32,000 nt of DNA, taken from NCBI GenBank assembly GCA_031316235.1, contig JALDRA010000001.1, forward strand, positions 480,001 to 512,000. Direction: 5' to 3'. This DNA comes from Candidatus Scalindua sp. GTDB taxonomy: Bacteria > Planctomycetota > Brocadiia > Brocadiales > Scalinduaceae. The position numbers and the translations under genes were made by a program. The notes beneath the pieces are model-generated. The model searched no databases, had not been told where the DNA came from, and worked only from the letters and a program-made list of their open reading frames with translations. This document shows, one piece after another, positions 3,324 through 25,064 of the stretch (the first letter of the stretch is position 1; each line of letters starts with the position of its first letter).

Positions 3324-3421
3324 AGTTAAACTCTATTCAGACTTTACTTAAAATAAAGTACTCTTTCATACATCCACGGCTATATTTTCATTCGTTACGA
3401 TTCCATCTGATATATTACTCT

Positions 3422-3820
3422 TTATCTACAACCAGGGGCTTTGCATTTATCTCTTTCACTATGAATATGAGAAGCATACTTACCTAATTGATTACTATAA
3501 GAGTCCCTATGAACAAAATAATCTGTATTTTTTAATACTACTCTATCCTTAAGATTGTACGTATCTCTCAACCTCTTCTCAAGCTCTATATTTCTCTCAT
3601 CATAGAACATCTTTAATGGAATATTTTCCTTACTCCTCCATCTCGACAGCCTTTTAGAAACCAGTGACGGTGAAACATTCAAATCATGGGCAATTTCCCT
3701 TTGCGTAACAAATCCGGGCCACCTGTCATAAATAACCCTGGCGGTCTTATTGTCCAATTCAGGGTCACTTACCGCAATCCTGTACCTGCTCTTATTGTTA
3801 CCATCTCTTTTTTCAGCCAT
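3422..3820 (-). CDS. SorC/DeoR-type HTH regulator, N-terminal domain only (lacks sugar-phosphate-binding domain)
   Basis: ARVIYDRWPGFVTQREIAHDLNVSPSLVSKRLSRWRSKENIPLKMFYDERNIELEKRLRDTYNLKDRVVL matches the SorC-family N-terminal pattern (aArLYY..g.tQ.eIA..L.vSr..VSRlL..Ar..g.V.I.i.d......Le..L...y.Lk...Vv). The ORF stops after 132 aa where about 315 aa is usual. Confidence 0.55.
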   Translation of the reverse strand: MAEKRDGNNKSRYRIAVSDPELDNKTARVIYDRWPGFVTQREIAHDLNVSPSLVSKRLSRWRSKENIPLKMFYDERNIELEKRLRDTYNLKDRVVLKNTDYFVHRDSYSNQLGKYASHIHSERDKCKAPGCR

Positions 3821-3841
3821 AATTTACTTCCTGAACAGGGA

Positions 3842-3923
3842 GTTTTAAACAATGCTCTTCCACCATAGTATGCTGTTTTTGAAATACAGACGGCTGACAA
3901 CGCTCTATGGTGTTGTTTAAAAC
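3842..3923. promoter_or_regulatory. large interrupted inverted repeat in the divergent promoter region (candidate operator)
   Basis: Left arm 3842-3868 is GTTTTAAACAA-tgctcttc-CACCATAG. Right arm 3905-3923 is CTATGGTGTTGTTTAAAAC, whose reverse complement is GTTTTAAACAACACCATAG. That gives 19 matching nt, with an 8-nt insert in the left arm and about 36 bp between the arms. Confidence 0.5.
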
Positions 3924-3940
3924 ACATTGTATAAAATATA

Positions 3941-3969
3941 TTGACACCTGTAATATATTTTCCTAATAT
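3941..3969 (+). promoter_or_regulatory. sigma70-like promoter for the Lrp/AsnC gene
   Basis: TTGACA (3941-3946), a 17-nt spacer, then TAATAT (3964-3969), about 54 nt upstream of ATG 4023. Confidence 0.4.
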
Positions 3970-4022
3970 AAACTCTTTTCGGAATTTAGTTCAATAATAA
4001 AACCAACAGGGCGGCATTACAA

Positions 4023-4616
4023 ATGGGAAGTTTCACAATGAAACTCACAAAGAACGAGATTCATGTACTTAAGCTGCTAGTCCAGAATCCACTAAGTACA
4101 AACCAGGCAATATCAAACAAGCTTGAGATAACCTCCCAGGGTGTCGGCAAGATACGGAAGCAGCTCACAGAGAAAGGGTTTATAAAAAACCAGAAATTAA
4201 GCCTGGATTATGAAAAATTAGGCGTAAACATACATACAATTGCTTTGATAAAGATATTACCCAGTGTTTTTAAAAATTTCAAGAACAACGAATTAGATAA
4301 GGTTTTAAAGCCGAATAATGCTATCAGATGTTATGCAATACCTGAGACAGACATAACCCACATAATAATTTATGCTTTCAGGAATATTAAGGAATATGAC
4401 TCATATTTCAGAAATATTTTAGAGGAATTCGGGGACTATGTGGAGATCAAACACTCCTTTGTCCTTTCATCAGGGAGCATACTGAAATCGTCATCCAAAC
4501 AGATGCTTCTGGAAGTACTCGATAGCTGGGAATTTAATAAAAAAAGAATCTACCGTCGAAACAAAGATGAATACGAAACAGGAGATATGCTGGATAACAG
4601 GAAAAATCGCTTATAA
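4023..4616 (+). CDS. Lrp/AsnC-family transcriptional regulator
   Basis: N-terminal wHTH (LTKNEIHVLKLLVQNPLSTNQAISNKLEITSQGVGKIRKQLTEKGFI) followed by a RAM/AsnC-type ligand domain pattern (LGVNIHTIALIKI...ITHIIIYAFRNIKEYDSYFRNIL). An alternative start is ATG 4038. Confidence 0.8.
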   Translation: MGSFTMKLTKNEIHVLKLLVQNPLSTNQAISNKLEITSQGVGKIRKQLTEKGFIKNQKLSLDYEKLGVNIHTIALIKILPSVFKNFKNNELDKVLKPNNAIRCYAIPETDITHIIIYAFRNIKEYDSYFRNILEEFGDYVEIKHSFVLSSGSILKSSSKQMLLEVLDSWEFNKKRIYRRNKDEYETGDMLDNRKNRL

Positions 4617-4722
4617 TGACAAATTCCGGCATTTTATACACCAGACAATTTGTACCGTACGGTTTTCAGGATTGTAAATAAAACCTTACTGTTAGAAAAA
4701 TCTCTCAATTAAATTGGATATT

Positions 4723-4749
4723 CCGGCAATTCAGATTAGAGATTGCCGG
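4723..4749 (+). promoter_or_regulatory. 8-bp perfect inverted repeat upstream of the CBS gene
   Basis: CCGGCAAT (4723-4730), an 11-nt loop, then ATTGCCGG (4742-4749), 40 nt before ATG 4789. The related word ATTCCGGCA occurs at 4623-4631 and 4720-4728. Confidence 0.3.
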
Positions 4750-4788
4750 CTGTTGAAGAATCATCATAAAAGGAGGCATAGAAATAGT

Positions 4789-5223
4789 ATGATTACGGTA
4801 AACCAAATGCTGAATGACAAAAAGGATGGGGTTTTTACTGTTACACCTGAGGACACTTTACATCATGCATTGAAAGTTATGGCAGATAAAAACATTGGAG
4901 CGGTGGTTGTAGTCAAACAGGGGAAAATCGTTGGAATGTTTTCAGAACGAGATTTTGTGCGAAATGCCGTAGCCGACAGGAAGATATCAATTGATATGAA
5001 GGTAAGTCAATTAATGACGACTGTGGTGTGCTATGTACGCCCGGAACAGGCAATAGATGAGTGCATGGCCTTGATGACAGAGAAACGTACTCGTCATTTG
5101 CCAGTACTGGACGGAGAGAAGCTGATTGGTATTATCAGCATTGGAGATGTATTAAAGCACACCATAGCTGAAAAAGAGTTTACAATTCAGAATCTTGAAA
5201 CTTTTATTTCAGGAGGTCTTTAA
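4789..5223 (+). CDS. CBS-domain pair protein
   Basis: MITVNQMLNDKKDGVFTVTPEDTLHHALKVMADKNIGAVVVV..GKIVGMFSERDFVR plus a second CBS repeat (VSQLMTTVVCYVRPEQAIDECMALMTEKRTRHLPVLDGEKLIGIISIGDVLKH). I prefer ATG 4789, with AAAGGAGG at 4769-4776, over the track start at 4714. Confidence 0.8.
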   Translation: MITVNQMLNDKKDGVFTVTPEDTLHHALKVMADKNIGAVVVVKQGKIVGMFSERDFVRNAVADRKISIDMKVSQLMTTVVCYVRPEQAIDECMALMTEKRTRHLPVLDGEKLIGIISIGDVLKHTIAEKEFTIQNLETFISGGL

Positions 5224-5501
5224 GAGATAAAACATTAAACTATGGGATCGAAATATCTGGCAAAGAGTGCGGATACAAAAACCGATTTGGTTTTAGCATA
5301 TTAACATTTTTTCATCTCTCCTTCATCATGTTTTCATGTTTGGTTGTTATATTTGTCGTTGAGAGACTGATTTGTTGCATATCAGGTGCAGCGGCCTTAT
5401 GAGTAGTTAATTTCTTCAGAAACGAAGAGGCTTATTTTTTTTACTTAATCACAGATGATGTCTTCTTCCGAATAACTGATTCTTAACAAGGAGATAGAAT
5501 T

Positions 5502-7484
5502 ATGTCAGACCTAAAAGCGGATTTGCAAGTTCCAAAGAGTGGCTTTGCGGGTCTAAAACAAAACTTTAAGCAAGACATTATTTCCGGTTTCCTGGTTTTC
5601 CTTATTGCGCTCCCATTATGTCTCGGGATATCCCTTGCCTGCGGTTACCCGGCAATAGCGGGCATATTTACGGCAATTATTGGCGCTATACTTGCCACCG
5701 TTATCAGCAACTCCGAACTGACGATCAAGGGGCCGGCTGCCGGACTTATTGTAATTGCCATCGGAGCGATAACTGAATTTGGATTTACCGGAGGTAAAGA
5801 TCCGGCATCTGATTTACAGGCATACAAGCTCGTCCTCGGAATCGGTGTTGCCGCTGGCTGCATCCAGATTCTTTTCGGTCTGTTTCGTATCGGATCTCTT
5901 AGTGATTTCTTTCCCCTGTCAGTAGTGCACGGGATGCTGGCTGCTATCGGCATAATCATCATACTCAAACAATTTCCTATCGCAATGGGTGGCCGGGCCG
6001 CGGGAGCTCCTCTTGATCTGCTCTTATCAATTCCTGCAAAGATCATACACATGAATCCGAAAATTGCTGCAATAGGTATAGGAAGCCTGGGAATTATGTT
6101 CGGAATACCGCTCATCAAGAACAAATACATCAAGATGGCACCTACTCCCATGTTAGTGCTGATATTTGCCGTACCGTTAGGATTGTATTTTGGCTTATCC
6201 CATGAGCACACATATTTTTTTGAAGGTCGCGAATACAAGGTTGGGGATGAGTTTCTGGTTAACGTTCCGGGAAATATGTTCAAGGCAATGACCTATCCTG
6301 ACTTTTCTGCGTTAAAGACGGTCTCGGGGTGGAAATGGGTGATCATGTTCTCCCTGATCGGCAGCCTGGAGTCCCTGCTCAGTGCAAATGCCATTGATCT
6401 GCTGGACCCCTGGAAACGGAAGACCAATATGAATCGGGACATGCTTGCTGTCGGGATCGGGAATACCGTTTCCGCGTTTATTGGAGGCCTTCCCATGATT
6501 TCTGAGATTGTGCGGAGCAAGGCAAATATTGACAATGGCGCACGAAGCCGTTTCTCAGATCTGTACCATGGGCTTTTTCTGCTTCTTTTTGTGGCATTAG
6601 CACCATTCTTGCTCCATAAGATACCGCTTGCCGCCCTGGCGGCAATGCTCGTATACACCGGTTTTCAATTGACTGCACCACGAAAGTTTACTCTCGTTAA
6701 ACGGATCGGGAGAGAGCAGTTAATCATGTTTGTGGTTACCGTTATAGCTGTACTGGCGACGGACCTGGTTATCGGTATTGCTATCGGGATAGGAACAAAA
6801 TTTATTTTTCATATTATTAATGGCGTTCCGATACGTTCCCTCTTTACGTCCTATCTTGAACTCAGAGAGTTAGACAATGAAACCTGCTTCATTAGAGTTA
6901 AAGAGTCGGCTGTCTTCAGTAACTGGATTCCGATCAAGAAACAGATAGAGCGTTTTGGATTAATTCGAAACAAAAACCTGATATTAGACTTGACAGATAC
7001 CGCTATGGTTGACCACAGTGTGATGGAAAAACTTCACGAAATGAAAGATACGTTCAGTCAGAACAACCTCATGCTGGAAATTGTTGGGTTGGGGGGTCGC
7101 CAGTCTCTGTCCAGCCACCCTCTTTCGACACGCAGAAAGGTAGTTGAGTTAATAAAACGTATTTTGGTCTTTACCGATTCAGTCCTTCAGCCTCTGCTTG
7201 AACAGGAATTAAACTACCATGGGGTAAAAGACTTCACAACTATCGGGTGTGGTGGTGCCGGAGTAGTAACCAGTCAGCGATTGCGTATAGAGATCATAAC
7301 CCCGCCCGACAAAGCCAAACACCTTCTGGATTTTATTCGCGGTGAGATCTTACCAAAATATGCGGAAAAATATTCAGTAAAAGCGTTTACTGAAAATGTG
7401 GAAGTAATCCTTCCCGATGAACCATATGTCACAAAATTAAGTCATAACTCTTTATCAAATCAAACCATAACCATTATGAGATGA
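5502..7484 (+). CDS. SulP-family inorganic anion transporter with C-terminal STAS domain and an additional ~110-aa extension
   Basis: 660 aa. The N-terminus (GLKQNFKQDIISGFLVFLIALPLCLGISLACGYPAIAGIFTAIIGAILATVI) and later motifs (SLESLLSANAIDLL, NTVSAFIGGLPMISEIVRSKANIDNGARSR) are typical of SulP. The STAS-like region is at about aa 455-532 (nt ~6864-7097). AAGGAG lies 7 nt upstream of the ATG. Confidence 0.9.
   Translation: MSDLKADLQVPKSGFAGLKQNFKQDIISGFLVFLIALPLCLGISLACGYPAIAGIFTAIIGAILATVISNSELTIKGPAAGLIVIAIGAITEFGFTGGKDPASDLQAYKLVLGIGVAAGCIQILFGLFRIGSLSDFFPLSVVHGMLAAIGIIIILKQFPIAMGGRAAGAPLDLLLSIPAKIIHMNPKIAAIGIGSLGIMFGIPLIKNKYIKMAPTPMLVLIFAVPLGLYFGLSHEHTYFFEGREYKVGDEFLVNVPGNMFKAMTYPDFSALKTVSGWKWVIMFSLIGSLESLLSANAIDLLDPWKRKTNMNRDMLAVGIGNTVSAFIGGLPMISEIVRSKANIDNGARSRFSDLYHGLFLLLFVALAPFLLHKIPLAALAAMLVYTGFQLTAPRKFTLVKRIGREQLIMFVVTVIAVLATDLVIGIAIGIGTKFIFHIINGVPIRSLFTSYLELRELDNETCFIRVKESAVFSNWIPIKKQIERFGLIRNKNLILDLTDTAMVDHSVMEKLHEMKDTFSQNNLMLEIVGLGGRQSLSSHPLSTRRKVVELIKRILVFTDSVLQPLLEQELNYHGVKDFTTIGCGGAGVVTSQRLRIEIITPPDKAKHLLDFIRGEILPKYAEKYSVKAFTENVEVILPDEPYVTKLSHNSLSNQTITIMR
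7149..7412 (+). other. PII-like (ferredoxin-fold beta-alpha-beta x2) domain at the C-terminus of the SulP protein
   Basis: aa ~550-637 read as KRILVFTD / SVLQPLLEQELNYHGV / KDFTTIGCGGAG / RLRIEIITPPD / KAKHLLDFIRGEILPKY / SVKAFTENVEVI. This has the same segment order as GlnB-type PII proteins (KIEAII.. / ..GITGMTVTEVKGFG / KVKIEIVVPDD.. / GKIFV). The assignment is an inference from pattern, not a search result. Confidence 0.4.
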
Positions 7485-7509
7485 GTAAAAATGGTTAAAG
7501 AGACGTAAA

Positions 7510-8034
7510 ATGGATATATTTTTGAAACTCTTTTCTACACCGAAAACGCTTATTCGACGTCATTCATTAATCGGTGATTCAGGGGTCTTAACTATCGGAA
7601 AAAAGATAGAAAAGAAAGTGAATCGGCTGTTTTCCGGTTCCCTTGCCATCAGAGAAATTGATACAGGTTCAACAAATGCATGTGAACAGGAGATTACCGC
7701 TCTTACCAATACATTTTATGATATTGAGCGGTTTGGTGTCCATTTTGTTGCATCTCCCCGGCACGCCGACATGCTCATGGTTACCGGTCCGGTAACCAGA
7801 AACATGCGTGAAGCCCTGGTAAAAACGTATGAGGCAACCCCGGAACCGAAGATAGTTGTTGCGGTTGGCGATGACGCTATTAATGGCGGAATCTTCAGAG
7901 GGTCGTATGCAGTCCTGGACGGAGTTGACAGGGTTATACCGGTAAATTACTACATACACGGAGACCCGCCTTCACCAATGAAAATCCTTCTCTCCCTTTT
8001 AAATATCCTTGAAATTATAGAGAGTAAATCCTGA
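7510..8034 (+). CDS. NuoB/HycG/HyfI-family small subunit homologue lacking 3 of 4 FeS-cluster cysteines
   Basis: FGVHFVASPRHADMLMVTGPVTRNM...PEPKIVVAVG..INGGIF...VIPVNYYIHGDPPSP aligns by hand with HycG/NuoB (SPRHAD.l.vTG.VT / PKv.ia.GaCa.sGGiF / vPVDvyiPGCPP.P). The ligand positions read T55, C58, D122 and D152. Confidence 0.85.
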   Translation: MDIFLKLFSTPKTLIRRHSLIGDSGVLTIGKKIEKKVNRLFSGSLAIREIDTGSTNACEQEITALTNTFYDIERFGVHFVASPRHADMLMVTGPVTRNMREALVKTYEATPEPKIVVAVGDDAINGGIFRGSYAVLDGVDRVIPVNYYIHGDPPSPMKILLSLLNILEIIESKS

Positions 8035-8057
8035 TATAAGGAAAACGGACAATAGTT

Positions 8058-10106
8058 ATGTTGAATGTCATTACCGCTCAAATCTGTTTTTTCATCATGC
8101 TGTTATCTTTTGCAACCGGAGCAGCAGGCTCACTCCTCTTCATGAAAGATGACACACGTTCAAACTTGTGGGCTAATATCTCCGCAATTATTGGATCGAC
8201 GTTCGGTATCATTTCTTCGCTGATCGTCCTGGTATCAGGGAGCGGCTTTTCCTGTAACCTGAAATCATCGTTCCCTCTTCTTTCCTTTTCAATACAGGTA
8301 GACTGCCTCTGCGCTTTTTTCCTCTTCCTCATCTCAGTAATCTCCCTTTTGTGCTCTCTGTACGCAATAGGGTACACCAGACAGTACTATAAACACTACA
8401 ATATCGGTTCGCTGGGATTTTTCTATAACACTTTTCTTACCGGCATGGTATTTGTGGTTTCTGCGCACAACGGGCTGTTTTTTCTTGTGGTCTGGGAAGT
8501 AATGTCTCTCTCATCTTATTTCCTTGTTATTTTTGAACACAAAGAAGAAAAAAATATTGCGGCGGGATCGTTATATTTTGTTATGACGCATATTGGCACG
8601 GCCTTTATCATACTTGCGTTTCTGCTTCTTTACAAATCAACAGGTTCTCTCGATTTTACCATAATAAAAGACAGCATCGGTGAAATCTCACCTGTTACAA
8701 AAAATGCGGTCTTTATCCTTGCACTTATCGGGTTCGGGACAAAGGCGGGTATCATTCCGCTTCATACGTGGCTCCCAAGTGCTCACCCTGCGGCACCCTC
8801 ACATGTTTCCGCTTTAATGTCAGGGGTCATGATCAAGACAGCCATCTACATGTTAATCAGGATCTTTATGGAATTTATGCCTGATACACCTTTATGGTGG
8901 GGAGTTGTAATTCTCTTTGTCGGTTCTATATCTTCCCTCTTTGGCGTTCTCTATGCACTCTCGGAAAATGATCTTAAAAGATTACTGGCATTCAGCAGCA
9001 TTGAAAACATAGGCATTATTTTGCTCGGGCTTGGTGCTTCGCTGGTTTTCCTGGCCCTGGGTATGAAGCCATATGCAATGATGGCACTGATAGCGTCTTT
9101 ATTTCACACCCTAAACCATGCAACATTCAAGGCTTTACTCTTTTTGGGGGCAGGCTCAGTTATATCGAAAACAGGCACGCGTAATATCGAAGAATATGGC
9201 GGTATCATAAAATTTTTACCGTATACCGCATTTTTCTTTTTAATAGGTTCGATGGCAATTTCAGCACTCCCTCCGTTTAATGGTTTTTTCAGTGAATGGC
9301 TTACGTTTCAATCACTTTTCTCCGGAATTAAAACTACGCATATTTTTATCAAATTGATCTTTATCTCTGCGGCAGGTTCGCTGGCGTTAACGGGTGGCCT
9401 TGCCGCTGCCTGTTTTGTAAGGGCATTTGGTCTTGTATTCCTGGCACGTCCCAGGAGCGAGAGAACAATTTGTGCAAAAGAATCTTCAGTTTCATTACTG
9501 TCTGGTATGGGGGTTCTTGCAGCACTCACATTGCTGTTTGGGTTTTTTTCAGGATATATTTCAGCACTACTTTCAAAGGTTACAAAGAGTATTGTTGTTT
9601 TTCAGGGATCAGAACCAGCGGTTTCATCAAATTTTGAAACTGTCAGATTGCAGGATGGAACAGCCACCGTTTCCATGCCCGGCATCCTCATCTCCCTGGT
9701 CCTTGCTCTTCTGGCCATAACCGTTTTTGTCTATTTCCTGACACGCAGGCAAAAGGTTAAAAAGGGTATCACCTGGGATTGCGGAACACCTTTTACCGGA
9801 AGGATGGAGATAACGGCTACAGGCTTTTCGAGGTCATTGGTAACGATATTCAAGGGTATCCTGAAACCAACCAAACAAACTGATATTGAATACCATGATT
9901 CGAACCTTAAATATTTCACAAAATTTAACATAACGACACTGGGAACAGGGCACGACATTTACAATGAATATTTATATGCTCCTTTAAACAAATTAATCAC
10001 CAGGATTGCGAAATATCTCAGCGTGATTCAAAGCGGAAACATAAACGCTTATGTACTCTATATTATCATTGCCTTAATTACCCTGATACTACTCTTGGTA
10101 GTTTAA
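8058..10106 (+). CDS. HyfB/HycC/NuoL-type antiporter-like membrane subunit
   Basis: 682 aa, close to the size of E. coli HyfB. Contains VVWEVMSLSSYFLV (TM5 Glu, E147), GFGTKAGIIPLHTWLPSAHPAAPSHVSALMSGVMIKTAIY (K229) and FHTLNHATFKALLFLGAGSV. Confidence 0.85.
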   Translation: MLNVITAQICFFIMLLSFATGAAGSLLFMKDDTRSNLWANISAIIGSTFGIISSLIVLVSGSGFSCNLKSSFPLLSFSIQVDCLCAFFLFLISVISLLCSLYAIGYTRQYYKHYNIGSLGFFYNTFLTGMVFVVSAHNGLFFLVVWEVMSLSSYFLVIFEHKEEKNIAAGSLYFVMTHIGTAFIILAFLLLYKSTGSLDFTIIKDSIGEISPVTKNAVFILALIGFGTKAGIIPLHTWLPSAHPAAPSHVSALMSGVMIKTAIYMLIRIFMEFMPDTPLWWGVVILFVGSISSLFGVLYALSENDLKRLLAFSSIENIGIILLGLGASLVFLALGMKPYAMMALIASLFHTLNHATFKALLFLGAGSVISKTGTRNIEEYGGIIKFLPYTAFFFLIGSMAISALPPFNGFFSEWLTFQSLFSGIKTTHIFIKLIFISAAGSLALTGGLAAACFVRAFGLVFLARPRSERTICAKESSVSLLSGMGVLAALTLLFGFFSGYISALLSKVTKSIVVFQGSEPAVSSNFETVRLQDGTATVSMPGILISLVLALLAITVFVYFLTRRQKVKKGITWDCGTPFTGRMEITATGFSRSLVTIFKGILKPTKQTDIEYHDSNLKYFTKFNITTLGTGHDIYNEYLYAPLNKLITRIAKYLSVIQSGNINAYVLYIIIALITLILLLVV

Positions 10107-10112
10107 ACAGAC

Positions 10113-11051
10113 ATGGTTACCATACTTATCTGGACAATTCAGTTATTGCTTGTTCCTGCACTTTCACCGCTTCTTATCGGTGTGGTTAGAAAGATGAAGG
10201 CCAGACTGCAGAATCGAAAAGGGGCAGATATTTTTCAGCCTTACAGAGATCTCTGGAAACTGATGCACAAGGATGAAGTCATCAGCGAAGATGCTTCCTG
10301 GGTTTTTCGTACTGCCCCTTATATTATTTTCGGGATTACCATGATTGTCGGCGCCAGTATCCCACTGTTTACGACACTGATCCCGGATATCCTATTACAT
10401 GATTTTCTTGTAATTGTGTACCTTCTTGCGATAGGAACTTTTTTTCTGGCTCTTGCAGGCCTTGACACAGGGAATGCCTTTGGAGGTTTTGGATCGAGTC
10501 GAGAAATGGTTGTGGCCGCTTTAGCAGAAGGAGGCTTTATCTTCTCTTTTCTCGTACTCGCCTTACTATCAAATTCCACAAATCTGTTTTCCATAGCAGA
10601 ACATGTAGAAACTTTGCGCTTACACTCAAATGTTGAATTTGTGTCAATTGGTTTTGCTTTCTTCGGTTTTTTTATTGTCCTTCTTGCTGAAACCGGGCGT
10701 TACCCATTTGATAATCCCTCCACACACCTGGAACTTACGATGATTCACGAAGCAATGATTCTGGAGTACTCTGGCAAAAGACTTGCCCTTGTTGAATGGG
10801 CCGCTGCCAACAAATTCATGATTTTTCTCGCACTGGGTGTGAACCTGTTTTTCCCCTGGGGTATGGCGAATTCATCAGATTTCACCGATATCATTGTTTC
10901 CCTCGCCTTGTTTCTATCAAAGATGCTGGGTTTTTGCCTTACGATTGCAACGCTTGAATCACGGGTTGCCAAGATCAGATTTTTTAGAATACCAGACATT
11001 TTATTTACCTCTTTTATCCTTTGTGTGATTGCCATTGTAATAATTATTTAG
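10113..11051 (+). CDS. HyfC/HycD/NuoH-type membrane subunit
   Basis: 312 aa. The N-terminus (SPLLIGVVRKMKARLQNRKGADIFQPYRDLWKLMHKDE) and THLELTMIHEAMILEYSGKRLAL match the HycD/NuoH family pattern. Confidence 0.85.
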   Translation: MVTILIWTIQLLLVPALSPLLIGVVRKMKARLQNRKGADIFQPYRDLWKLMHKDEVISEDASWVFRTAPYIIFGITMIVGASIPLFTTLIPDILLHDFLVIVYLLAIGTFFLALAGLDTGNAFGGFGSSREMVVAALAEGGFIFSFLVLALLSNSTNLFSIAEHVETLRLHSNVEFVSIGFAFFGFFIVLLAETGRYPFDNPSTHLELTMIHEAMILEYSGKRLALVEWAAANKFMIFLALGVNLFFPWGMANSSDFTDIIVSLALFLSKMLGFCLTIATLESRVAKIRFFRIPDILFTSFILCVIAIVIII

Positions 11052-11059
11052 GAAAATTC

Positions 11060-11719
11060 ATGATTGAGATCTCATCACAAATTCTGTTTTATCTGGAAGT
11101 ATTAATCTATCTATCAGCAACGTTAATGCATCTGACAAAAAAAAATAGATCCATAATTTTTCTTTACCTGTTCCAATCACTCATTACAACGGTTTTGCTG
11201 GTAATTTTTTCGATCGAAAAGTTCAGTGAATCCCTGGTCTTTGTCATTTTCCTCACATTTTTAGTTAAAGTTATACTTGCCCCGCTTTTCTTTATGAAAC
11301 TGGTCAAACGGCATCAATTACAAATCGCCGTAAGCACGTATCTCAATATACCAATGACTCTTTTAGTTTTAACAATACTGACGGCAGTCACCCATTATCA
11401 CTTTCTTGAACCGCTTACTTCGCTTTCCCCCGGAGAAGAGAAGCTTTTGCTGCTTTCTGTCGCGACTATATTAATATCTCTCTTCCTGATAATAAACCGA
11501 AAGGGGGCTTTGTCACAGATGATCGGAATTTTGTCCCTTGAAAATGCAATAGTATCTTTTGCCTCGTTTGCGAGACTCGAGCACAACCCCGGACTTCAAA
11601 TCGGCATTATTTTTGATCTGCTTGTATGGACCATTATTGCCACAGTATTTGTTTCAATGATTTTCAGGAAATTCGGCACCTTAAATATTACCTCGATAAA
11701 AAAAACCCTGGAAGAATAA
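11060..11719 (+). CDS. HyfE-type small membrane subunit
   Basis: From ATG 11060 (MIEISSQ...) the protein is 219 aa. The C-terminal half (GALSQMIGILSLENAIVSFASFARLEHNPGLQIGIIFDLLVWTIIATVFVSMIFRKFGTLNITSIKKTLEE) parallels E. coli HyfE (..ILRQIFGYCLMENGSHLV...EIGIATDAIFAVIVMVLLARKIWRTHGTLDVNNLTALKG, recalled from memory). Confidence 0.7.
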   Translation: MIEISSQILFYLEVLIYLSATLMHLTKKNRSIIFLYLFQSLITTVLLVIFSIEKFSESLVFVIFLTFLVKVILAPLFFMKLVKRHQLQIAVSTYLNIPMTLLVLTILTAVTHYHFLEPLTSLSPGEEKLLLLSVATILISLFLIINRKGALSQMIGILSLENAIVSFASFARLEHNPGLQIGIIFDLLVWTIIATVFVSMIFRKFGTLNITSIKKTLEE

Positions 11720-11722
11720 AGC

Positions 11723-13171
11723 ATGTTAATATTTTTTCTCATTTTACCGCCCTGTCTGGCAGCGATGTTTTCTGTTTTTGTTCAAAAGAGAACCGGACTT
11801 ATTGAAAGATTTACTTTCATAGCTTCTGTTATTGAACTCTCAGCAGGTTTAAGCATAGTAACGTTTGTTCAACCGGGCAAACCGTATTCGCTCACTTCCT
11901 GTTTTTCTGTTGACGCCCTTGGTGCAATCCTGATACTCATGATAACCGTCATCGGACTTTTTGTCTCGTGGTATTCAATCAGCTATTTAAGATATGAAGT
12001 GACAGGACAGGTAATAGGTTTCAGCAGGGTTCGACAGTACTATATTTTCCTGAACCTGTTTCTGATGGCAATGCTTCTGGCGGTAACCACAACAAGCCCG
12101 ATAATAATGTGGATTGCCATTGAAGGTACAACGCTTTCGACAGCCTTCCTCATAAGCTTTTATAATGATCCATCGGCCGTAGATGCAGCCTGGAAATATT
12201 TGATTGTTAATTCAGTTGGACTACTCCTGGGCTTTATGGGAACACTTCTTTTCTTTTCACCCGTCATAAGCAGCACGAGTCATCAGGGTTTTGTATTCTG
12301 GGATACAATTTTTGCAAACGCACAGAATTCCAACCCCTTTATCGCAAAGATTGCCTTTGTCTTCGTCCTGATAGGGTATGGAACAAAGATGGGGCTGGTA
12401 CCTATGCATACGTGGCTGCCCGATGCCCACAGTAAAGCCCCGGTCCCGATAAGCAGCCTCCTTTCAGGCGTTCTTTTAAGTGTTGCCTTTTTTGCTATTC
12501 TTCACTTCAAAAAAGTTACTGATGCAATGTTAGGCCCTGGCTTTGCGCAGAATTTGTTGATGGTTTTTGGTACGATTTCTGTTTTTATGGCCTCCTTCTT
12601 TATCTATAATCAAAAGAGTTATAAACGCCTGCTCGCTTACTCCAGCATAGAGCACATGGGAATTATTGCCCTGGGTTATGGATTTGGCGGTATCGGTGCA
12701 TTCGCAGCGCTCCTTCACATGATCTTTCATGCTCTAGCAAAATCCTTGCTTTTTCTGTCTGCGGGTAACGTCTATTTAAGATTTAAATCAACTAAAATTC
12801 TTGATGTGAAAGGTGCACTTTCTGCCTTACCCATAACCAGCGTTCTCCTTCTGATTGGGTTTCTGGCTATAACCGGTGTCCCACCGTTCGGTATTTTTTT
12901 TACCGAACTATATATTCTGGCAAGCGGCATCACGAATCATCCTGTTATTACGATTATCGTGTTATTCTCACTTGTTCTTATTTTTGCCGGATTCTTACGT
13001 CATTTTACCTCCATGGTGTTCGGAAAAACCCCGGATACTATTTCAAGAGGAGAATCAAACATGGAGACTATCTTACCTTTAATTGTCATGACTATTCTCT
13101 TTATCATTATCAGCATCTATCTGCCGTCTCACATCAAGAGTTTGATTGATGCTGCCGTTTCAACGTACTAA
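11723..13171 (+). CDS. HyfF/NuoN/NuoM-type antiporter-like membrane subunit
   Basis: 482 aa. Contains IIMWIAIEGTTLSTAFLI (E134), GYGTKMGLVPMHTWLPDAHSKAPVPISSLLSGVLL (K222), YSSIEHMGIIALG and IFHALAKSLLFLSAGNV. Confidence 0.85.
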   Translation: MLIFFLILPPCLAAMFSVFVQKRTGLIERFTFIASVIELSAGLSIVTFVQPGKPYSLTSCFSVDALGAILILMITVIGLFVSWYSISYLRYEVTGQVIGFSRVRQYYIFLNLFLMAMLLAVTTTSPIIMWIAIEGTTLSTAFLISFYNDPSAVDAAWKYLIVNSVGLLLGFMGTLLFFSPVISSTSHQGFVFWDTIFANAQNSNPFIAKIAFVFVLIGYGTKMGLVPMHTWLPDAHSKAPVPISSLLSGVLLSVAFFAILHFKKVTDAMLGPGFAQNLLMVFGTISVFMASFFIYNQKSYKRLLAYSSIEHMGIIALGYGFGGIGAFAALLHMIFHALAKSLLFLSAGNVYLRFKSTKILDVKGALSALPITSVLLLIGFLAITGVPPFGIFFTELYILASGITNHPVITIIVLFSLVLIFAGFLRHFTSMVFGKTPDTISRGESNMETILPLIVMTILFIIISIYLPSHIKSLIDAAVSTY

Positions 13172-13173
13172 TT

Positions 13174-14748
13174 ATGAATACGGATCAGATTGTAGAAAAA
13201 TATGTCCCGGGGAACATGAAAGTAGAGATTTACGGCAATATCATAACCTACAAAATATATAAAAAAAATATTTCCCGGGTCTTTTACACCCTTTATCATA
13301 CGCTGAAACTCCCGCTCAAGACAATAACCGTTACTGACGAGAGGGAGGAAAATGATTCTTTCAAGATTTTTTATCTTTTCGGAGTCCCGGGGGAAAAAGT
13401 GTTTCTTGCCCCCTATATACTGCTGTCAAAAGAATACAAATTCCCTTCTCTCGCAAGTATGAATCACGTAACCACTGAGTATGAAAAGAAGATCAAGTCT
13501 CTTTTCGGTCTAGACCCAACTGGCCATTTAAACCCGAAAAAAATTATCCTTCACGAAAACTGGCCGGACAATGTGTTTCCCTTAAGAAGGGAATTTGACT
13601 GGAAGTCCAGGCCTGATATTGCGCATACTCCGTTTCATTTCGAAAAGGTTGAAGGAGATGGTATTTACGAAATCCCCGTAGGTCCCGTTCACGCGGGCAT
13701 TATTGAACCCGGTCACTTTCGCTTCAGTGTTGCTGGTGAAGAGATACTCTTGCTGGAACCGAGGCTGGGATATACACACAAAGGAAGCGAGAAGCTCTTT
13801 GAAGTCCTCTCTTCCATGGATGAGAAGATTACATTGTCAGAAAGGGTATCCGGCGACAGTTCATTCAGCCATTCACTTGCCTTTTGCCAGGCAATTGAAT
13901 CGTTATGTGAATATGAGGTGACAGAAAGATCAAAGTATCTTCGGGTTATTTATTCGGAACTTGAGAGATTGGCGAATCATTTTGGAGACATTGGAGCCAT
14001 AATGCTGGACACTGGTTTCAGTTTTGGAGGAAGCAATGGCGGCCGTTTACGGGAAATTGTCATGCAGCTGAACGAGCTGTTAACAGGCAGCCGTTTTCTC
14101 CGGGGCGTAAATACAGTAGGCGGTGTAACCAAAGACATATCAGCCCCTCTTATTGACAAGATCTTAAATGAGCTGGAAGATATAAGAAAAGACTTTGAAG
14201 AAGTTATTCATATAGCAGAAAATTGTAATTCTCTGTTGAATCGACTCAAGGGTACCGGAGTGTTAGAAACTCGTATTGCCAGGGACCACGGAGTGGTCGG
14301 TATCGTGGCAAGGTCAATGGGTTTTGCAGCAGATGCCAGAATTGACTACCCATATGCTGCTTATGACAGGTTCTCTTTTGCAGCAGCGACAGAGAATGAA
14401 GGAGATGTATACGCACGATTTTGTGTCCGTGTAAAAGAGAGCTATACCTCCATCCAGATCCTTAAAGAAGCATTAGCGACTCTTCCTGGGGGACCTTGTC
14501 TGGTTTCACCAAAACCCGTCTCCTTGAATAAAGCCAGCTATGGACTTGGAATAACCGAGGGATGGCGTGGCGACATCATTTACTTTGTGGCGACAAATTC
14601 CCGGGGACAGATTATCAGGGTTGATGTGAGAGACCCATCATTTCTAAACTGGCCGGTTCTCAGACATGCCGGGAAAGGCAACGTTGTCCCGGACTTCCCT
14701 CTCATCAACAAAAGTTTCAATCTCTCTTATTCAGGATTCGATTTGTAG
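13174..14748 (+). CDS. HyfG/HycE-type large subunit homologue (NuoC-NuoD fusion) lacking all four NiFe cysteine ligands
   Basis: GPVHAGIIEPGHFRFSVAGEEILLLEPRLGYTHKGSEKL is the group-4 large-subunit signature. The L1 motif reads ERVSGDSSFSH where ERvCGiC..aH is expected. The C-terminus reads DFPLINKSFNLSYSGFDL-stop where D.PLi..S.DPCySCtDR is expected. Confidence 0.85.
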   Translation: MNTDQIVEKYVPGNMKVEIYGNIITYKIYKKNISRVFYTLYHTLKLPLKTITVTDEREENDSFKIFYLFGVPGEKVFLAPYILLSKEYKFPSLASMNHVTTEYEKKIKSLFGLDPTGHLNPKKIILHENWPDNVFPLRREFDWKSRPDIAHTPFHFEKVEGDGIYEIPVGPVHAGIIEPGHFRFSVAGEEILLLEPRLGYTHKGSEKLFEVLSSMDEKITLSERVSGDSSFSHSLAFCQAIESLCEYEVTERSKYLRVIYSELERLANHFGDIGAIMLDTGFSFGGSNGGRLREIVMQLNELLTGSRFLRGVNTVGGVTKDISAPLIDKILNELEDIRKDFEEVIHIAENCNSLLNRLKGTGVLETRIARDHGVVGIVARSMGFAADARIDYPYAAYDRFSFAAATENEGDVYARFCVRVKESYTSIQILKEALATLPGGPCLVSPKPVSLNKASYGLGITEGWRGDIIYFVATNSRGQIIRVDVRDPSFLNWPVLRHAGKGNVVPDFPLINKSFNLSYSGFDL

Positions 14749-14884
14749 TCACTCCCTGCCCTATGTTCCCGTGTTGATTATATAGTGCGTGAACGAAAAC
14801 TGTCCGGGTGCAAGACGCGCAATAATTGCGTAACCGGGGCATACTCAAGTACGTCCTGAAGAACCTGTTTAGCAGGAGAGCTTT

Positions 14885-14903
14885 TATACTCATCTCATAA
14901 CTG
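14885..14903 (+). repeat. 5'-end fragment of the TA-flanked MITE-like repeat family
   Basis: TA|TACTCATCTCATAACTG matches the first 13 nt of the family 5' end exactly. No matching 3' end was found downstream. Confidence 0.5.
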
Positions 14904-15190: not shown

Positions 15191-16936
15191 ATGCAGAACG
15201 GTACAATACCAACCAAAGTAAAAAAGAATGGAATTGAATGGACGGTACGTAAAGGGTATGAGGATCTTCAAGACAGGTTTAATCTTACCTGTCTCCATTC
15301 AGCATTACAGAAAATCCCGCATACGATAATAAAAGATACAAAGGTGAGATCTGTTTTTTTTATACCGGACTCAGACACTAATATGAGAGGTATATATGTC
15401 AAGTGTTTCAAGGAGAGAGATTCCAGAGACTTTAACAAATATCTCGATTGCGTCAAGCATCTCTTTGTCAGGACGAAAGCCGAAACAGAATGGAATGTGG
15501 GAAACAGACTGTTAAGCAAGGAGATTAACACTGCACTCCCCCTGGCAATAGCTGAAAACAGGTCGTGGTTTTTCCGGAAAAACAGCATGCTGATTACAGG
15601 GGCCATACCAGATAGTAAATCCCTGATAGATTTTTGTCAATCGAGCTTTCACGACACCCAATCCGAAGAGGCATCCATCAGAAAAAAGAACCTCATCAAT
15701 ACTCTGGCAGAATTTGTCAGAGATATCCACAGTAAGGGGTTCTTTCACAGCGACTTCCATGCAGGTAATATTTTAATACAATTCCACCATGATCATACCG
15801 GGCAGGACCAGCCGTATTCGTTTTATCTGATAGACCTCCACCACGTAAAGATACTGAAGACATTATCAAAACGGAAGATCCTGTACAACCTCGCACAATT
15901 ATTTAATTCACTCTCTTCATCCTTGACACAATATGACAGGAGACAGTTTTTCCAATCGTATGGAAAAGATAGTTTTGGCAAACAGAAAGAGAGGCAGAAA
16001 CTTGTGGACCAGATAGATACAATATCCTGCAGGTTAAGGTTCACCCATTATAAAAGCCGGCTGAAGAGATGTCTGAAAAGAAGCAGTCTCTTTTCAAAGA
16101 GAAAGTTTGACGGTTTCACGATATTTTTCAGAAAGGGCTATGATACGGAATTTTTTTTTGACCTCTTGGAAAAACATGATACGGCTCTGGCACATAAGCT
16201 GTGCGACACAATCCTGAAACAAGACAGAAAGACCATCTTAACCCGGCACCCTTTTCAGGATAAAGAGATCCAGACCGTTGTAGTAAAGCACTATAAATCT
16301 CCTCCCGGGTTTGGTCTCATAAAAAACAGCTTCCGGAAGTCACCGGGAAAGAAAGCCTGGATTTCCGGAAATGGTTTATTACTATATGGATTTGATGCTC
16401 CTCTGCCGCTCACCTTAATAGAAAAAAGGGTACTCGGAGTTGTCACGGACAGCTACCTGATCATGGAAGCAGTCTCTCACTCGCTTGAGATGGACAGATA
16501 TATCGTAAAGAATTTCCACGACCAGGAGGAATCCAGATTACCCGTAATTGTAAAGATGAAAAGAAGTTTTATAGACCAGTTCGCGCAAATCATTGCGAAA
16601 ATGCATAATAAGAGGGTTTTTCATCACGACCTGAAGACCTGTAATATAATGGTAAAGGCCAATTCAGCGTTCGATTTCACTTTCCTCGATTTTGATAAAG
16701 TGACATTCGGGAAAAACGTGCGTATCCGGGAAAGGATAAGGAATTTAACACAGATCAATCTCTCAACTCCAGGGTGTATCACCCTGAAGGATCGACTGAG
16801 ATTTTTAGGGGAATACCTCAGGCAATGTAACTTACAAGAGGCAAAAAGAACCATACGCAATGAAATTTCCGCTATGAGTAAGAGAGAAAAAATACTCTAT
16901 GTTACCGGTAAAGGAGATGTGACGGAAGATTGGTAG
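15191..16936 (+). CDS. protein with two tandem lipopolysaccharide-kinase (Kdo/WaaP/InaA-type) domains
   Basis: Domain 1 has IYVKCFKER..., GFFHSDFHAGNILI and FYLIDLHHV. Domain 2 has VVVKHYKSP..., VFHHDLKTCNIMV and FTFLDFDKV. Both have the catalytic-loop H.D....N and D-[FL]-x metal-loop patterns of this kinase fold. Confidence 0.7.
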   Translation: MQNGTIPTKVKKNGIEWTVRKGYEDLQDRFNLTCLHSALQKIPHTIIKDTKVRSVFFIPDSDTNMRGIYVKCFKERDSRDFNKYLDCVKHLFVRTKAETEWNVGNRLLSKEINTALPLAIAENRSWFFRKNSMLITGAIPDSKSLIDFCQSSFHDTQSEEASIRKKNLINTLAEFVRDIHSKGFFHSDFHAGNILIQFHHDHTGQDQPYSFYLIDLHHVKILKTLSKRKILYNLAQLFNSLSSSLTQYDRRQFFQSYGKDSFGKQKERQKLVDQIDTISCRLRFTHYKSRLKRCLKRSSLFSKRKFDGFTIFFRKGYDTEFFFDLLEKHDTALAHKLCDTILKQDRKTILTRHPFQDKEIQTVVVKHYKSPPGFGLIKNSFRKSPGKKAWISGNGLLLYGFDAPLPLTLIEKRVLGVVTDSYLIMEAVSHSLEMDRYIVKNFHDQEESRLPVIVKMKRSFIDQFAQIIAKMHNKRVFHHDLKTCNIMVKANSAFDFTFLDFDKVTFGKNVRIRERIRNLTQINLSTPGCITLKDRLRFLGEYLRQCNLQEAKRTIRNEISAMSKREKILYVTGKGDVTEDW

Positions 16937-24445: not shown

Positions 24446-24826
24446 TTACACACGAAACTGTTTGATTTCTAAATCTGGTATAATTCTATAATGCTTTGTA
24501 TTTCCTGTATATAATATTTCATTGGTCTCTACTGTTGATGCAGCAATTAAGACATCAGATAAACATACATCGACCTTAAGGCCATATTGTTCCATATATA
24601 TAATTGCTCTATGGCCAATATTTTCACTTAGAGGTATTACTTCAAATGAATAGTCAGATATGAAGTGGCGTATCTGTTTACTCTCTTGTTTGCTTTTTAC
24701 ACCTTGAAACAATTCTAAATAGGTAATTGTTGAAATCTTTCTTAAATCTTCATTTTCAATTACATGAGCAGCTTTCTCATTACCTCTCAGAAACCATATC
24801 AATATGTCTGTATCAAAGATCATCAA
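24446..24826 (-). CDS. vapC: PIN-domain toxin, type II TA system
   Basis: MMIFDTDILIWFLRGNEKA...TYLELFQG...DVLIAASTVETNEILYTGNTKHY shows the PIN acidic residues (D5/D7, E, D, N-T-K-H tail) typical of VapC. It overlaps the upstream antitoxin gene by 11-14 nt. Confidence 0.85.
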   Translation of the reverse strand: MMIFDTDILIWFLRGNEKAAHVIENEDLRKISTITYLELFQGVKSKQESKQIRHFISDYSFEVIPLSENIGHRAIIYMEQYGLKVDVCLSDVLIAASTVETNEILYTGNTKHYRIIPDLEIKQFRV

Positions 24827-25064
24827 TCCTTCCTTTTCGTAACTTCCTTACATACTCATCAACATTTTTGATATCATCACGATTTTTCCAAATACCGTAT
24901 GCAGGATGTTCTTTGATTGGTTTTTCTTTATTGGCTCTTTTCTTTATTGGAACGAGAACCCCCTTCTTTTTCCCCCGGTAAAGAATAGTTACTGATTCAT
25001 TTCGATCCAGAGCTTTTATCACTTCACTCATTTTTCGTCTCAAATCTACTATAGATGCCTCCAT
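24813..25064 (-). CDS. Phd/YefM-type antitoxin partner of VapC
   Basis: I prefer ATG 25064 (AAGGGGG 8 nt upstream), which gives the 83-aa MEASIVDLRRKMSEVIKALDRNESVTILYRGKKKGVLVP...AYGIWKNRDDIKNVDEYVRKLRKGR. The upstream 42 codons of the track ORF have no support. Confidence 0.75.
   Translation of the reverse strand: MEASIVDLRRKMSEVIKALDRNESVTILYRGKKKGVLVPIKKRANKEKPIKEHPAYGIWKNRDDIKNVDEYVRKLRKGRIDDL

Follow-up and report, generated by a model that had tools for sequence, protein, structure and literature searches.

A PII-like domain fused to a SulP transporter of Candidatus Scalindua: a probable built-in regulatory module

A SulP gene with an additional C-terminal domain

The 32,000-nt stretch of Candidatus Scalindua sp. 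DNA analysed here (the window; assembly GCA_031316235.1, contig JALDRA010000001.1, positions 480,001 to 512,000 of the forward strand) encodes a SulP/SLC26-family transporter that continues beyond its STAS domain into a further folded domain (Table 1). PII-like proteins regulate transporters; for example, SbtB acts on the bicarbonate transporter SbtA, and GlnK acts on AmtB. A first-pass annotation, made from the sequence alone, had read the extension as a PII-like domain with a very short T-loop, which would serve either as a built-in nucleotide- or metabolite-sensing regulator or as a docking element coupling SulP to the Hyf-like complex encoded immediately downstream. The peptides that it quoted are all present, and its interval of 7149-7412 corresponds to codons 550-637 of the open reading frame (ORF). 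The PII-like identity of the domain is established below, and its gene contexts and nearest relatives indicate that it is probably a regulatory module of a bicarbonate-type transporter.

Table 1. The SulP-PII gene, its domains and neighbouring genes, with window coordinates and the evidence for each
Feature	Residues	Position	Strand	Evidence
SulP/SLC26-family transporter gene with C-terminal PII-like domain		5502..7484	+	ORF, Pfam Sulfate_transp, AlphaFold, Foldseek
STAS domain	451-528	6852..7085	+	weak Pfam match, SLC26Dg alignment, AlphaFold
Linker with conserved S-x-H-P...R-[RK] motif	533-550	7098..7151	+	AlphaFold, 74 homologues
PII-like domain, SbtB/CPII/TTHA0516 type	548-637	7143..7412	+	phmmer, profile, AlphaFold, Foldseek, Pfam
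Shortened T-loop, GGAGVVTSQRL	584-594	7251..7283	+	alignment
Four-residue insert AEKY between helix 2 and strand 4		7362..7373	+	alignment
Six-gene Ehr-type operon (hydrogenase-4-like, no NiFe site)		7510..14748	+	Pfam, NCBIfam
CBS-pair protein upstream of the fusion		4714..5223	+	Pfam CBS, E = 5.7e-26
Winged-helix regulator upstream of the fusion		4023..4616	+	Pfam HTH_24, TrmB, MarR

The 660-residue product begins with a Sulfate_transp membrane domain (residues 22-412, Pfam E = 2.4e-51) followed by a cytoplasmic STAS domain, an arrangement that places it in the SulP/SLC26 family by Pfam, by solved structures, and by AlphaFold and Foldseek. The Pfam match to STAS is weak (residues 460-532, E = 0.012); in the AlphaFold model the STAS domain is compact, with the order beta-beta-alpha-beta-beta-alpha-beta and a predicted local distance difference test score (pLDDT) of 82-93. 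Among solved structures, the membrane domain of BicA is nearest in sequence (6ki1, E = 5.8e-21), and the SLC26Dg structure aligns up to residue 534. The full-length model, built with 74 homologues, has a pLDDT of 85, and Foldseek matches it to SLC26 structures only up to the STAS domain. Beyond that point, the model contains a disordered linker (residues 534-547, pLDDT < 50), a confidently predicted last domain (residues 548-636) and a disordered tail (residues 639-660).

The STAS and PII-like domains are thus joined by a flexible linker of about 14 residues that is conserved in sequence. In particular, S537, H539 and R544 are conserved in at least 90% of the 74 full-length homologues, and R544 is found in all of the 80 loci described below. 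Natural SulP relatives that lack the PII domain terminate shortly past the linker motif. Because these relatives end there, the PII domain is a module subject to gain or loss, and because they nevertheless keep the motif, it suggests an interaction or modification site within the linker.

Identity of the C-terminal domain

Taken alone, the window domain falls short of the 25-bit cut-off of Pfam P-II (PF00543), with 15.7 bits and E = 0.019, and a phmmer search of the PDB returns the PII-like protein TTHA0516 (2cz4) at E = 0.005. A profile of 42 homologous C-terminal domains matches TTHA0516 at 1.2e-19, Cyanobium SbtB at 3e-10 and Synechocystis SbtB at 1e-6, with canonical PII proteins matching more weakly, at 1e-4 to 1e-2. 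Further, 30 of these 42 positionally homologous domains match PF00543 at E <= 0.01 (best 5.7e-15), and a precomputed PF00543 match exists on most SulP homologues with 55-62% overall identity.

Structure prediction leads to the same family. The AlphaFold model of residues 541-645 (pLDDT 87.7) has the order strand-helix-strand-strand-helix-strand (strands E and helices H, in model numbering: E8-19, H20-32, E38-42, E53-60, H62-80 and E87-96), which is the ferredoxin-like beta-alpha-beta-beta-alpha-beta core of about 100 residues found throughout the PII superfamily; the same elements are present in the full-length model. When Foldseek compares the domain model with the PDB, each of the 50 best matches is TTHA0516, SbtB or CPII (E = 8e-9 to 3e-6), headed by TTHA0516 with E = 8e-9, a template modelling (TM) score of 0.72-0.80 and a root-mean-square deviation of 2.1-2.5 A. 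The nearest neighbours in sequence and structure are therefore SbtB, CPII or TTHA0516, not GlnB, and alignment with E. coli GlnB reveals neither the canonical B-loop TGxxGDGKIF nor the R38/Q39 pair that marks the T-loop base of GlnB; the arginine after GxG is replaced by V. Overall, the final ~90 folded residues form a true PII-like domain that belongs with SbtB, CPII and TTHA0516 in the carbon-regulatory branch, and not with GlnB/GlnK; the fold that the first-pass annotation had read from a doubled beta-alpha-beta pattern after STAS is borne out by the family profile, AlphaFold and Foldseek.

Distribution of SulP-PII fusions

Relatives were sought by scanning one genome per GTDB species with an alignment of the STAS and PII regions, followed by tblastn confirmation. 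The scan alignment includes the STAS motif VDHSVME, which biases the sample of loci towards this SulP subfamily. In total, 513 SulP-PII loci were confirmed in GTDB species genomes, so that the extension is not unique to this genome, and the per-locus counts given here rest on the best 80 of them. These 80 are nearly all from Planctomycetota (Scalinduaceae, Brocadiaceae including Kuenenia, Pirellulaceae and Planctomycetaceae), with the cultured Thalassoglobus neptunius among the carriers. The SulP-PII architecture defines a large family, mainly of Planctomycetota. The source annotations call its members sulfate permeases or SulP transporters and leave the PII domain unmentioned; we know of no study of SulP-PII fusions, though the architecture is visible in automatic Pfam annotation.

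An initial appearance of rarity was discarded: the 128-residue tail alone had found one relative (P0001), and a full-length search revealed the domain to be common and fast-diverging. A HMMER profile built from two sequences gave 16 matches, mostly C-terminal SulP fragments called from internal Met codons, together with two apparently stand-alone proteins of ~100 residues and one spurious repeat protein.

Several loci carry unusual copies. One contig (L168, 923-5037) encodes two SulP-PII genes in tandem. The source genome of the window probably has at least two copies as well, the second being a probable paralogue (P0008) with 71% identity; a contig encoding this paralogue was sought, and none was found. 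In locus L001 (8983-10474) the SulP gene is broken, with ~160 internal residues of the membrane domain lost. This copy, the only close relative retrieved with the domain alone as the query, lies behind a PAPS-reductase-like gene, with neither Ehr nor Dab genes around it.

Derived features of the Scalindua form

An alignment of the window domain with 81 related loci and four reference proteins places the window domain apart from the typical fusion, which reads GA[ST]G[YF]T, then GxGR, a 15-residue T-loop, and a 3-residue connector before the last strand. Measured from the GxG glycine to the RxE arginine, the T-loop has 7 residues in the window and 15 in 55 of 80 relatives; the reference lengths are 14 (TTHA0516), 19 (SbtB) and 22 (GlnB). 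The very short T-loop noted in the first-pass annotation is thus real, and the long flexible loop of GlnB and SbtB (~18-22 residues) is missing from the window domain. The residue following GxG is V, in place of the R found in 66 of 80 relatives. Moreover, the window reads GVKDFT where typical fusions read GA[ST]G[YF]T, with D replacing a second glycine that 70 of 80 relatives keep. The motifs of SbtB and CPII at the presumed nucleotide site, GAxGYT and GxG[SR]R, are accordingly absent, their places being taken by GVKDFT and GAGVV. Finally, the connector between helix 2 and strand 4 is 3 residues long in 75 of 80 loci and 7 residues long in the window, in L001 and in L002-L004.

The GVKDFT-like sequence, the missing Arg after GxG, and the 7-residue loop and connector are common to the window, the broken copy L001 and three genomes of the Scalindua group (L002-L004). 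The short T-loop is derived, because all outgroups, including the stand-alone TTHA0516 and SbtB, have long loops, and the window domain is a rare derived form of a Scalindua subclade. Within the subclade, identity is 53-68% in the PII domain, 51-83% in the STAS domain and 77-88% in the membrane domain. The window domain retains the family-wide residues R553, C583, R595, E597 and E631. Judged by these alignments, the subclade's domain does not appear to be decaying; it is conserved about as well as STAS.

One of the retained residues, C583 (7248-7250), lies at the base of the T-loop and is present in 78 of 80 fusions, and not in the stand-alone TTHA0516, SbtB or GlnB. A second Cys, in the last strand, occurs in 57 of 80 fusions; the window has Phe there. 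The cysteines of the domain could conceivably have a redox role.

Inorganic-carbon genes beside the fusions

Neighbouring genes were counted by tblastn against the 80 loci; the queries were the Ehr proteins of the window, together with DabA, DabB and a beta-carbonic anhydrase from one of the loci (L027). DabA and DabB together form an energy-coupled pump that converts CO2 to bicarbonate. DabA lies within 10 kb of the fusion in 49 of the 80 loci, and DabB alone was found in 8 more, on truncated contigs; DabA/DabB genes thus stand beside the fusion in 57 of 80 loci, often with a carbonic anhydrase. For example, the gene row of Thalassoglobus neptunius is a beta-carbonic anhydrase (on the divergent strand), DabA, DabB, DabB' and SulP-PII. 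In Scalindua OFTM1 the row is SulP-PII, DabB and DabA, then a convergent Ehr operon that is 72% identical to the window's. At the level of the family, the domain therefore resides near inorganic-carbon uptake genes, as do SbtB- and CPII-type proteins. Within the 32-kb window itself, tblastn found neither DabA nor a beta-carbonic anhydrase; alpha-carbonic anhydrases were not looked for. Of these modules, the window has just the SulP fusion and the Ehr operon. Overall, the gene contexts tie the fusion family to inorganic-carbon uptake, and not specifically to Ehr.

Other combinations were observed. In L165 (638-10893), SulP-PII is followed by Ehr genes and an alpha-carbonic anhydrase, and L045 and L066 carry Ehr, DabA, DabB, DabB' and SulP-PII on one strand.

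The downstream Ehr operon

The Ehr operon begins 25 nt past the SulP stop codon, with no terminator-like site in the gap. It encodes group-4-hydrogenase/complex-I-like subunits in the order NuoB-like, HyfB-like, NuoH/HyfC-like, HyfE-like, HyfF-like and NuoC-D-like, of which HyfB exceeds its NCBIfam equivalog cut-off (683.8 vs 667). The large subunit is without the cysteines that bind a NiFe site: it reads RVSGDSSFSH at the position of the N-terminal NiFe cysteines, and a C-terminal cysteine motif is missing. The NuoB-like protein contains one Cys in total, where other NuoB-like proteins carry cluster cysteines, and no NuoI/HycF-type ferredoxin gene is present in the window's operon. From its sequences, the operon seems to lack two usual redox centres.

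The first-pass annotation had raised the possibility that such fusions always neighbour Ehr-type genes, which is not so. Ehr genes (NuoB-like or NuoC-D-like) lie within 10 kb in 7 of the 80 loci, three of which also have DabA; in four Planctomycetota loci outside the short-loop subclade, Ehr genes are located directly upstream of SulP-PII or dabA. In the reverse test, across 79 metagenome loci with relatives of the Ehr large subunit, no SulP gene was found nearby. Most of these relatives are 51-63% identical in the large subunit and have the window's gene order (a minority are 33-43% identical); the genes sampled around them encode ATP synthase subunits, a Na/H exchanger or unrelated proteins. 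A normal linkage of this type of Ehr operon to SulP was rejected on this basis.

Within the short-loop subclade, an Ehr operon stands right behind the fusion in 5 of 8 examined loci (the window, L003, L004, L161/L162 and L165). In four of those five, the Ehr operon is of a different type that keeps the NuoB cluster cysteines. The closest relative of the window (L166/L167, 86% nucleotide identity) is collinear with it on both sides and has the same short-loop fusion; its SulP stop codon runs almost directly into a Kdo-type kinase gene, which in the window follows the Ehr operon. Window positions 7457-14899 (7.4 kb, the entire Ehr operon) have no counterpart in this relative, and the breakpoint falls 9 codons ahead of the SulP stop. 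Upstream, compared over 3343-5488, L166/L167 also lacks the helix-turn-helix (HTH) and CBS genes, save for a 77-nt remnant of the 3' end of the HTH gene. The adjacency of SulP and Ehr is recurrent but labile, because L166/L167 keeps the fusion with the whole Ehr operon absent at the site, and it fits loosely cooperating modules better than a fixed, PII-docked complex.

A connection between the short loop and Ehr adjacency was considered and rejected as a rule: L002, L163/L164 and L166/L167 have short loops and no Ehr operon, and L020, L032, L045 and L066 adjoin Ehr with full-length T-loops. Separately, on a high-GC metagenome contig (L149, 3918-7014), a stand-alone PII-like gene of 97 codons (PF00543, E = 3e-17) lies ~650 nt past an Ehr-like cluster that keeps the NuoB cysteines, with Mrp-like genes further downstream.

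Other features of the window

The CBS-pair gene upstream of the fusion has a copy with 79% identity upstream of the fusion in L004, and is absent from the closest relative, L166/L167. CBS pairs usually bind adenosyl ligands, and this protein is a possible separate sensor of such a ligand. Copies of the winged-helix regulator with 77-78% identity occur near the fusion in L001 and L003-L005. Beyond the Ehr operon, positions 15191-16936 encode a 581-residue protein with a Kdo/WaaP-type kinase-like N-terminal half and a protein-kinase-type C-terminal half; in the closest relative, its gene is conserved as the next one behind SulP-PII. A PIN-domain toxin and a Phd/YefM-type antitoxin form a pair at 24446-25190 on the minus strand.

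Discussion

The fused domain is most likely a built-in regulatory module of a probable bicarbonate-type SulP transporter; in this Scalindua protein it would operate without the T-loop plug and in a loose grouping with Ehr. A built-in regulator is the natural reading because its nearest characterised relatives, SbtB and CPII, regulate or accompany inorganic-carbon uptake. The SulP protein would most probably move bicarbonate or a related inorganic-carbon species, and the fused domain would be the tethered equivalent of SbtB on SbtA. In typical members, the domain may sense adenine nucleotides, possibly together with bicarbonate, and the T-loop would then shut or open the transporter. In the Scalindua version, where only a short hairpin is left of the T-loop, the domain appears to remain a module for regulation or assembly that would act through the body of the domain, its oligomerisation or the conserved linker, instead of a T-loop plug, and adenylate sensing may have passed to other proteins. 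The conserved, disordered, basic linker (S537, H539 and R544) and the upstream CBS-pair protein are candidates for the lost interaction and sensing functions. The position of the fusion before the Ehr operon would reflect a loose but recurrent grouping of inorganic-carbon and ion-handling modules, with no fixed SulP-Ehr machine.

The comparison with known systems supports this assignment and shows where it departs from them. SbtB has the same fold and belongs to the same family (Foldseek E of ~1e-7 to 1e-6 and TM scores of 0.6-0.8, besides the profile matches), has the GAxGYT and GxG[SR]R motifs in common with typical fusions, and is likewise tied to an inorganic-carbon transporter. SbtB is a separate protein that binds the trimeric SbtA through its 19-residue T-loop; here, in contrast, the domain is fused to SulP/SLC26, the window's loop has shrunk to 7 residues, and the arginine is gone. 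The C-terminal CGPxGC extension of SbtB is absent from the window domain. CPII, the carboxysome-associated protein of Thiomonas intermedia, is a structural match (Foldseek E of ~1e-6, TM scores of 0.67-0.79); in carboxysome operons its gene adjoins DabA/DabB-type genes, much as the fusions stand beside dabA-dabB. CPII differs in being stand-alone and in having no match to the 42-domain sequence profile at E <= 1, and bicarbonate-enhanced binding of ADP/AMP is known for CPII only. The best match by both sequence and structure, TTHA0516 of Thermus thermophilus (a putative PII-like signalling protein), has a T-loop of nearly the typical fusion's length; it differs in being stand-alone, with no assigned function, and in lacking the fusion-specific Cys at the base of the loop. 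GlnB and GlnK belong to the same superfamily, and the GlnK-AmtB pair is likewise a membrane transporter controlled by a PII protein, yet the fusions are without their B-loop, have a much shorter T-loop and do not conserve K58; unlike for GlnB/GlnK, nothing at the locus points to nitrogen. SulP-carbonic anhydrase fusions, reportedly described by Felce and Saier in 2004, and BicA resemble the present proteins in joining a SulP core and STAS to an extra domain or context that points to bicarbonate, although the domain added here is a PII-like signalling module and not an enzyme.

Of the built-in sensor proposed in the first-pass annotation, the PII-like nature and the kinship with carbon-uptake regulators stand; the sensing is less secure. 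In PII proteins, the T-loop and the basic residue after GxG serve in partner contact and phosphate binding. Because both are missing, nucleotide sensing in the canonical mode is doubtful in the window copy, and plausible for the wider family.

Several observations weigh against a built-in regulator of bicarbonate transport. Roughly a quarter of the 80 loci have neither a Dab nor an Ehr neighbour, and their neighbours are unrelated genes. Although BicA is its nearest solved sequence, the window protein is no BicA equivalog (NCBIfam NF050096, 120.4 bits with a cut-off of 880); its DauA and sulP scores are likewise below their cut-offs, and the generic sulP model is its best match. The PAPS-reductase-like neighbour of L001 hints at sulfur, though that copy is broken. 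Moreover, SLC26 transporters form dimers, whereas PII proteins form trimers with ligand sites between subunits, so that how a fused domain on a dimeric transporter forms such inter-subunit sites is a puzzle. Finally, with its T-loop and arginine lost, the domain could be one that senses nothing any more.

This last point leads to the best-surviving alternative, that the subclade's domain is a vestige without signalling, whose one remaining use is to cap STAS for folding or stability. The loss of eight T-loop residues (15 to 7), of the Arg after GxG and of the second glycine of GASGYT would be expected of a remnant, as would the sub-threshold Pfam P-II score of the window sequence by itself, faster evolution than in the membrane domain (53-68% vs 77-88% identity) and the existence of natural relatives that dispense with the domain. 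However, the domain is intact, is folded with confidence by AlphaFold and is conserved about as well as STAS; it keeps C583, R553, R595, E597 and E631, and the new four-residue insert, fixed across the subclade, looks like remodelling and not decay. We consider a vestigial domain unlikely, with some weight left to it.

The docking role proposed in the first-pass annotation, taken here as a physical coupling of SulP to the downstream Ehr complex by which Ehr ion or proton movement would drive or gate anion transport, is less likely still. It draws on the Ehr operons directly behind 5 of 8 subclade fusions (with two Ehr types at that position), the four other Planctomycetota loci with Ehr directly upstream of SulP-PII or dabA, the 25-nt gap without a terminator-like site, and the PII-like gene near the Ehr-like cluster of the unrelated L149. 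Nevertheless, 73 of 80 fusion loci have no Ehr gene within 10 kb, none of the 79 loci with relatives of the window's Ehr operon has SulP nearby, and the Ehr-adjacent fusions L020, L032, L045 and L066 have full-length T-loops, so that the loss of the loop does not go with Ehr. Because a relative with 86% nucleotide identity keeps the short-loop fusion without the 7.4-kb operon, the domain is unlikely to be dedicated to docking the neighbouring Ehr complex.

A third alternative, that the substrate of the transporter is sulfate or a different anion and that the PII-like domain reports nitrogen or energy status in the manner of GlnB/GlnK, is improbable. The sulfate-permease annotations, the generic sulP match, the PAPS-reductase-like gene adjoining L001 and the profile's ~1e-4 match to canonical PII proteins would agree with it, but the best matches are SbtB, CPII and TTHA0516 and not GlnB/GlnK, the GlnB B-loop is absent, 57 of 80 loci lie beside DabA/DabB with carbonic anhydrases in several of them, and the L001 copy has lost ~160 internal residues. 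A chance resemblance to a generic ferredoxin-like beta-alpha-beta unit, for which only the single-sequence values (E = 0.019 in Pfam, 0.005 in the PDB) would speak, is refuted by the profile match of 1.2e-19, the 30 of 42 domains matching PF00543 and the Foldseek top 50.

Implications

Beyond a regulatory module on a bicarbonate-type transporter, a broader and much more speculative reading is that SulP-PII, DabA/DabB, carbonic anhydrases and NiFe-less Ehr complexes form an interchangeable toolkit for energy-coupled acquisition of inorganic carbon in Planctomycetota, including anammox bacteria, in which the Scalindua PII domain would have turned from a T-loop plug into an assembly element. We give this reading little credence at present. 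If true, the assembly element would gather SulP dimers into clusters and thereby resolve the mismatch between dimer and trimer, or would connect the dimers to an Ehr or ion-pumping partner, and the Ehr complexes would serve carbon or ion handling and not redox chemistry.

If the function of the fused domain is ordinary autoinhibition, the gain would be modest, and the annotation of these proteins would change from sulfate permease to regulated, probably bicarbonate-type, transporter. To our knowledge, PII-like regulators of bicarbonate uptake (SbtB and CPII) have been described only as stand-alone proteins; in the fusions, a PII-like domain of this kind is joined to transporters of another family, across hundreds of species and beside DAB carbon pumps. 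How PII-type domains gate transporters could be studied simply here, within a single polypeptide, and a trimer-forming domain on a dimer-forming transporter is a structural puzzle, while the T-loop-less Scalindua form is a natural experiment on a PII domain without its main effector loop. Overall, the family suggests that Planctomycetota, among them the CO2-fixing anammox bacteria, have a so far unexamined module for inorganic-carbon uptake.

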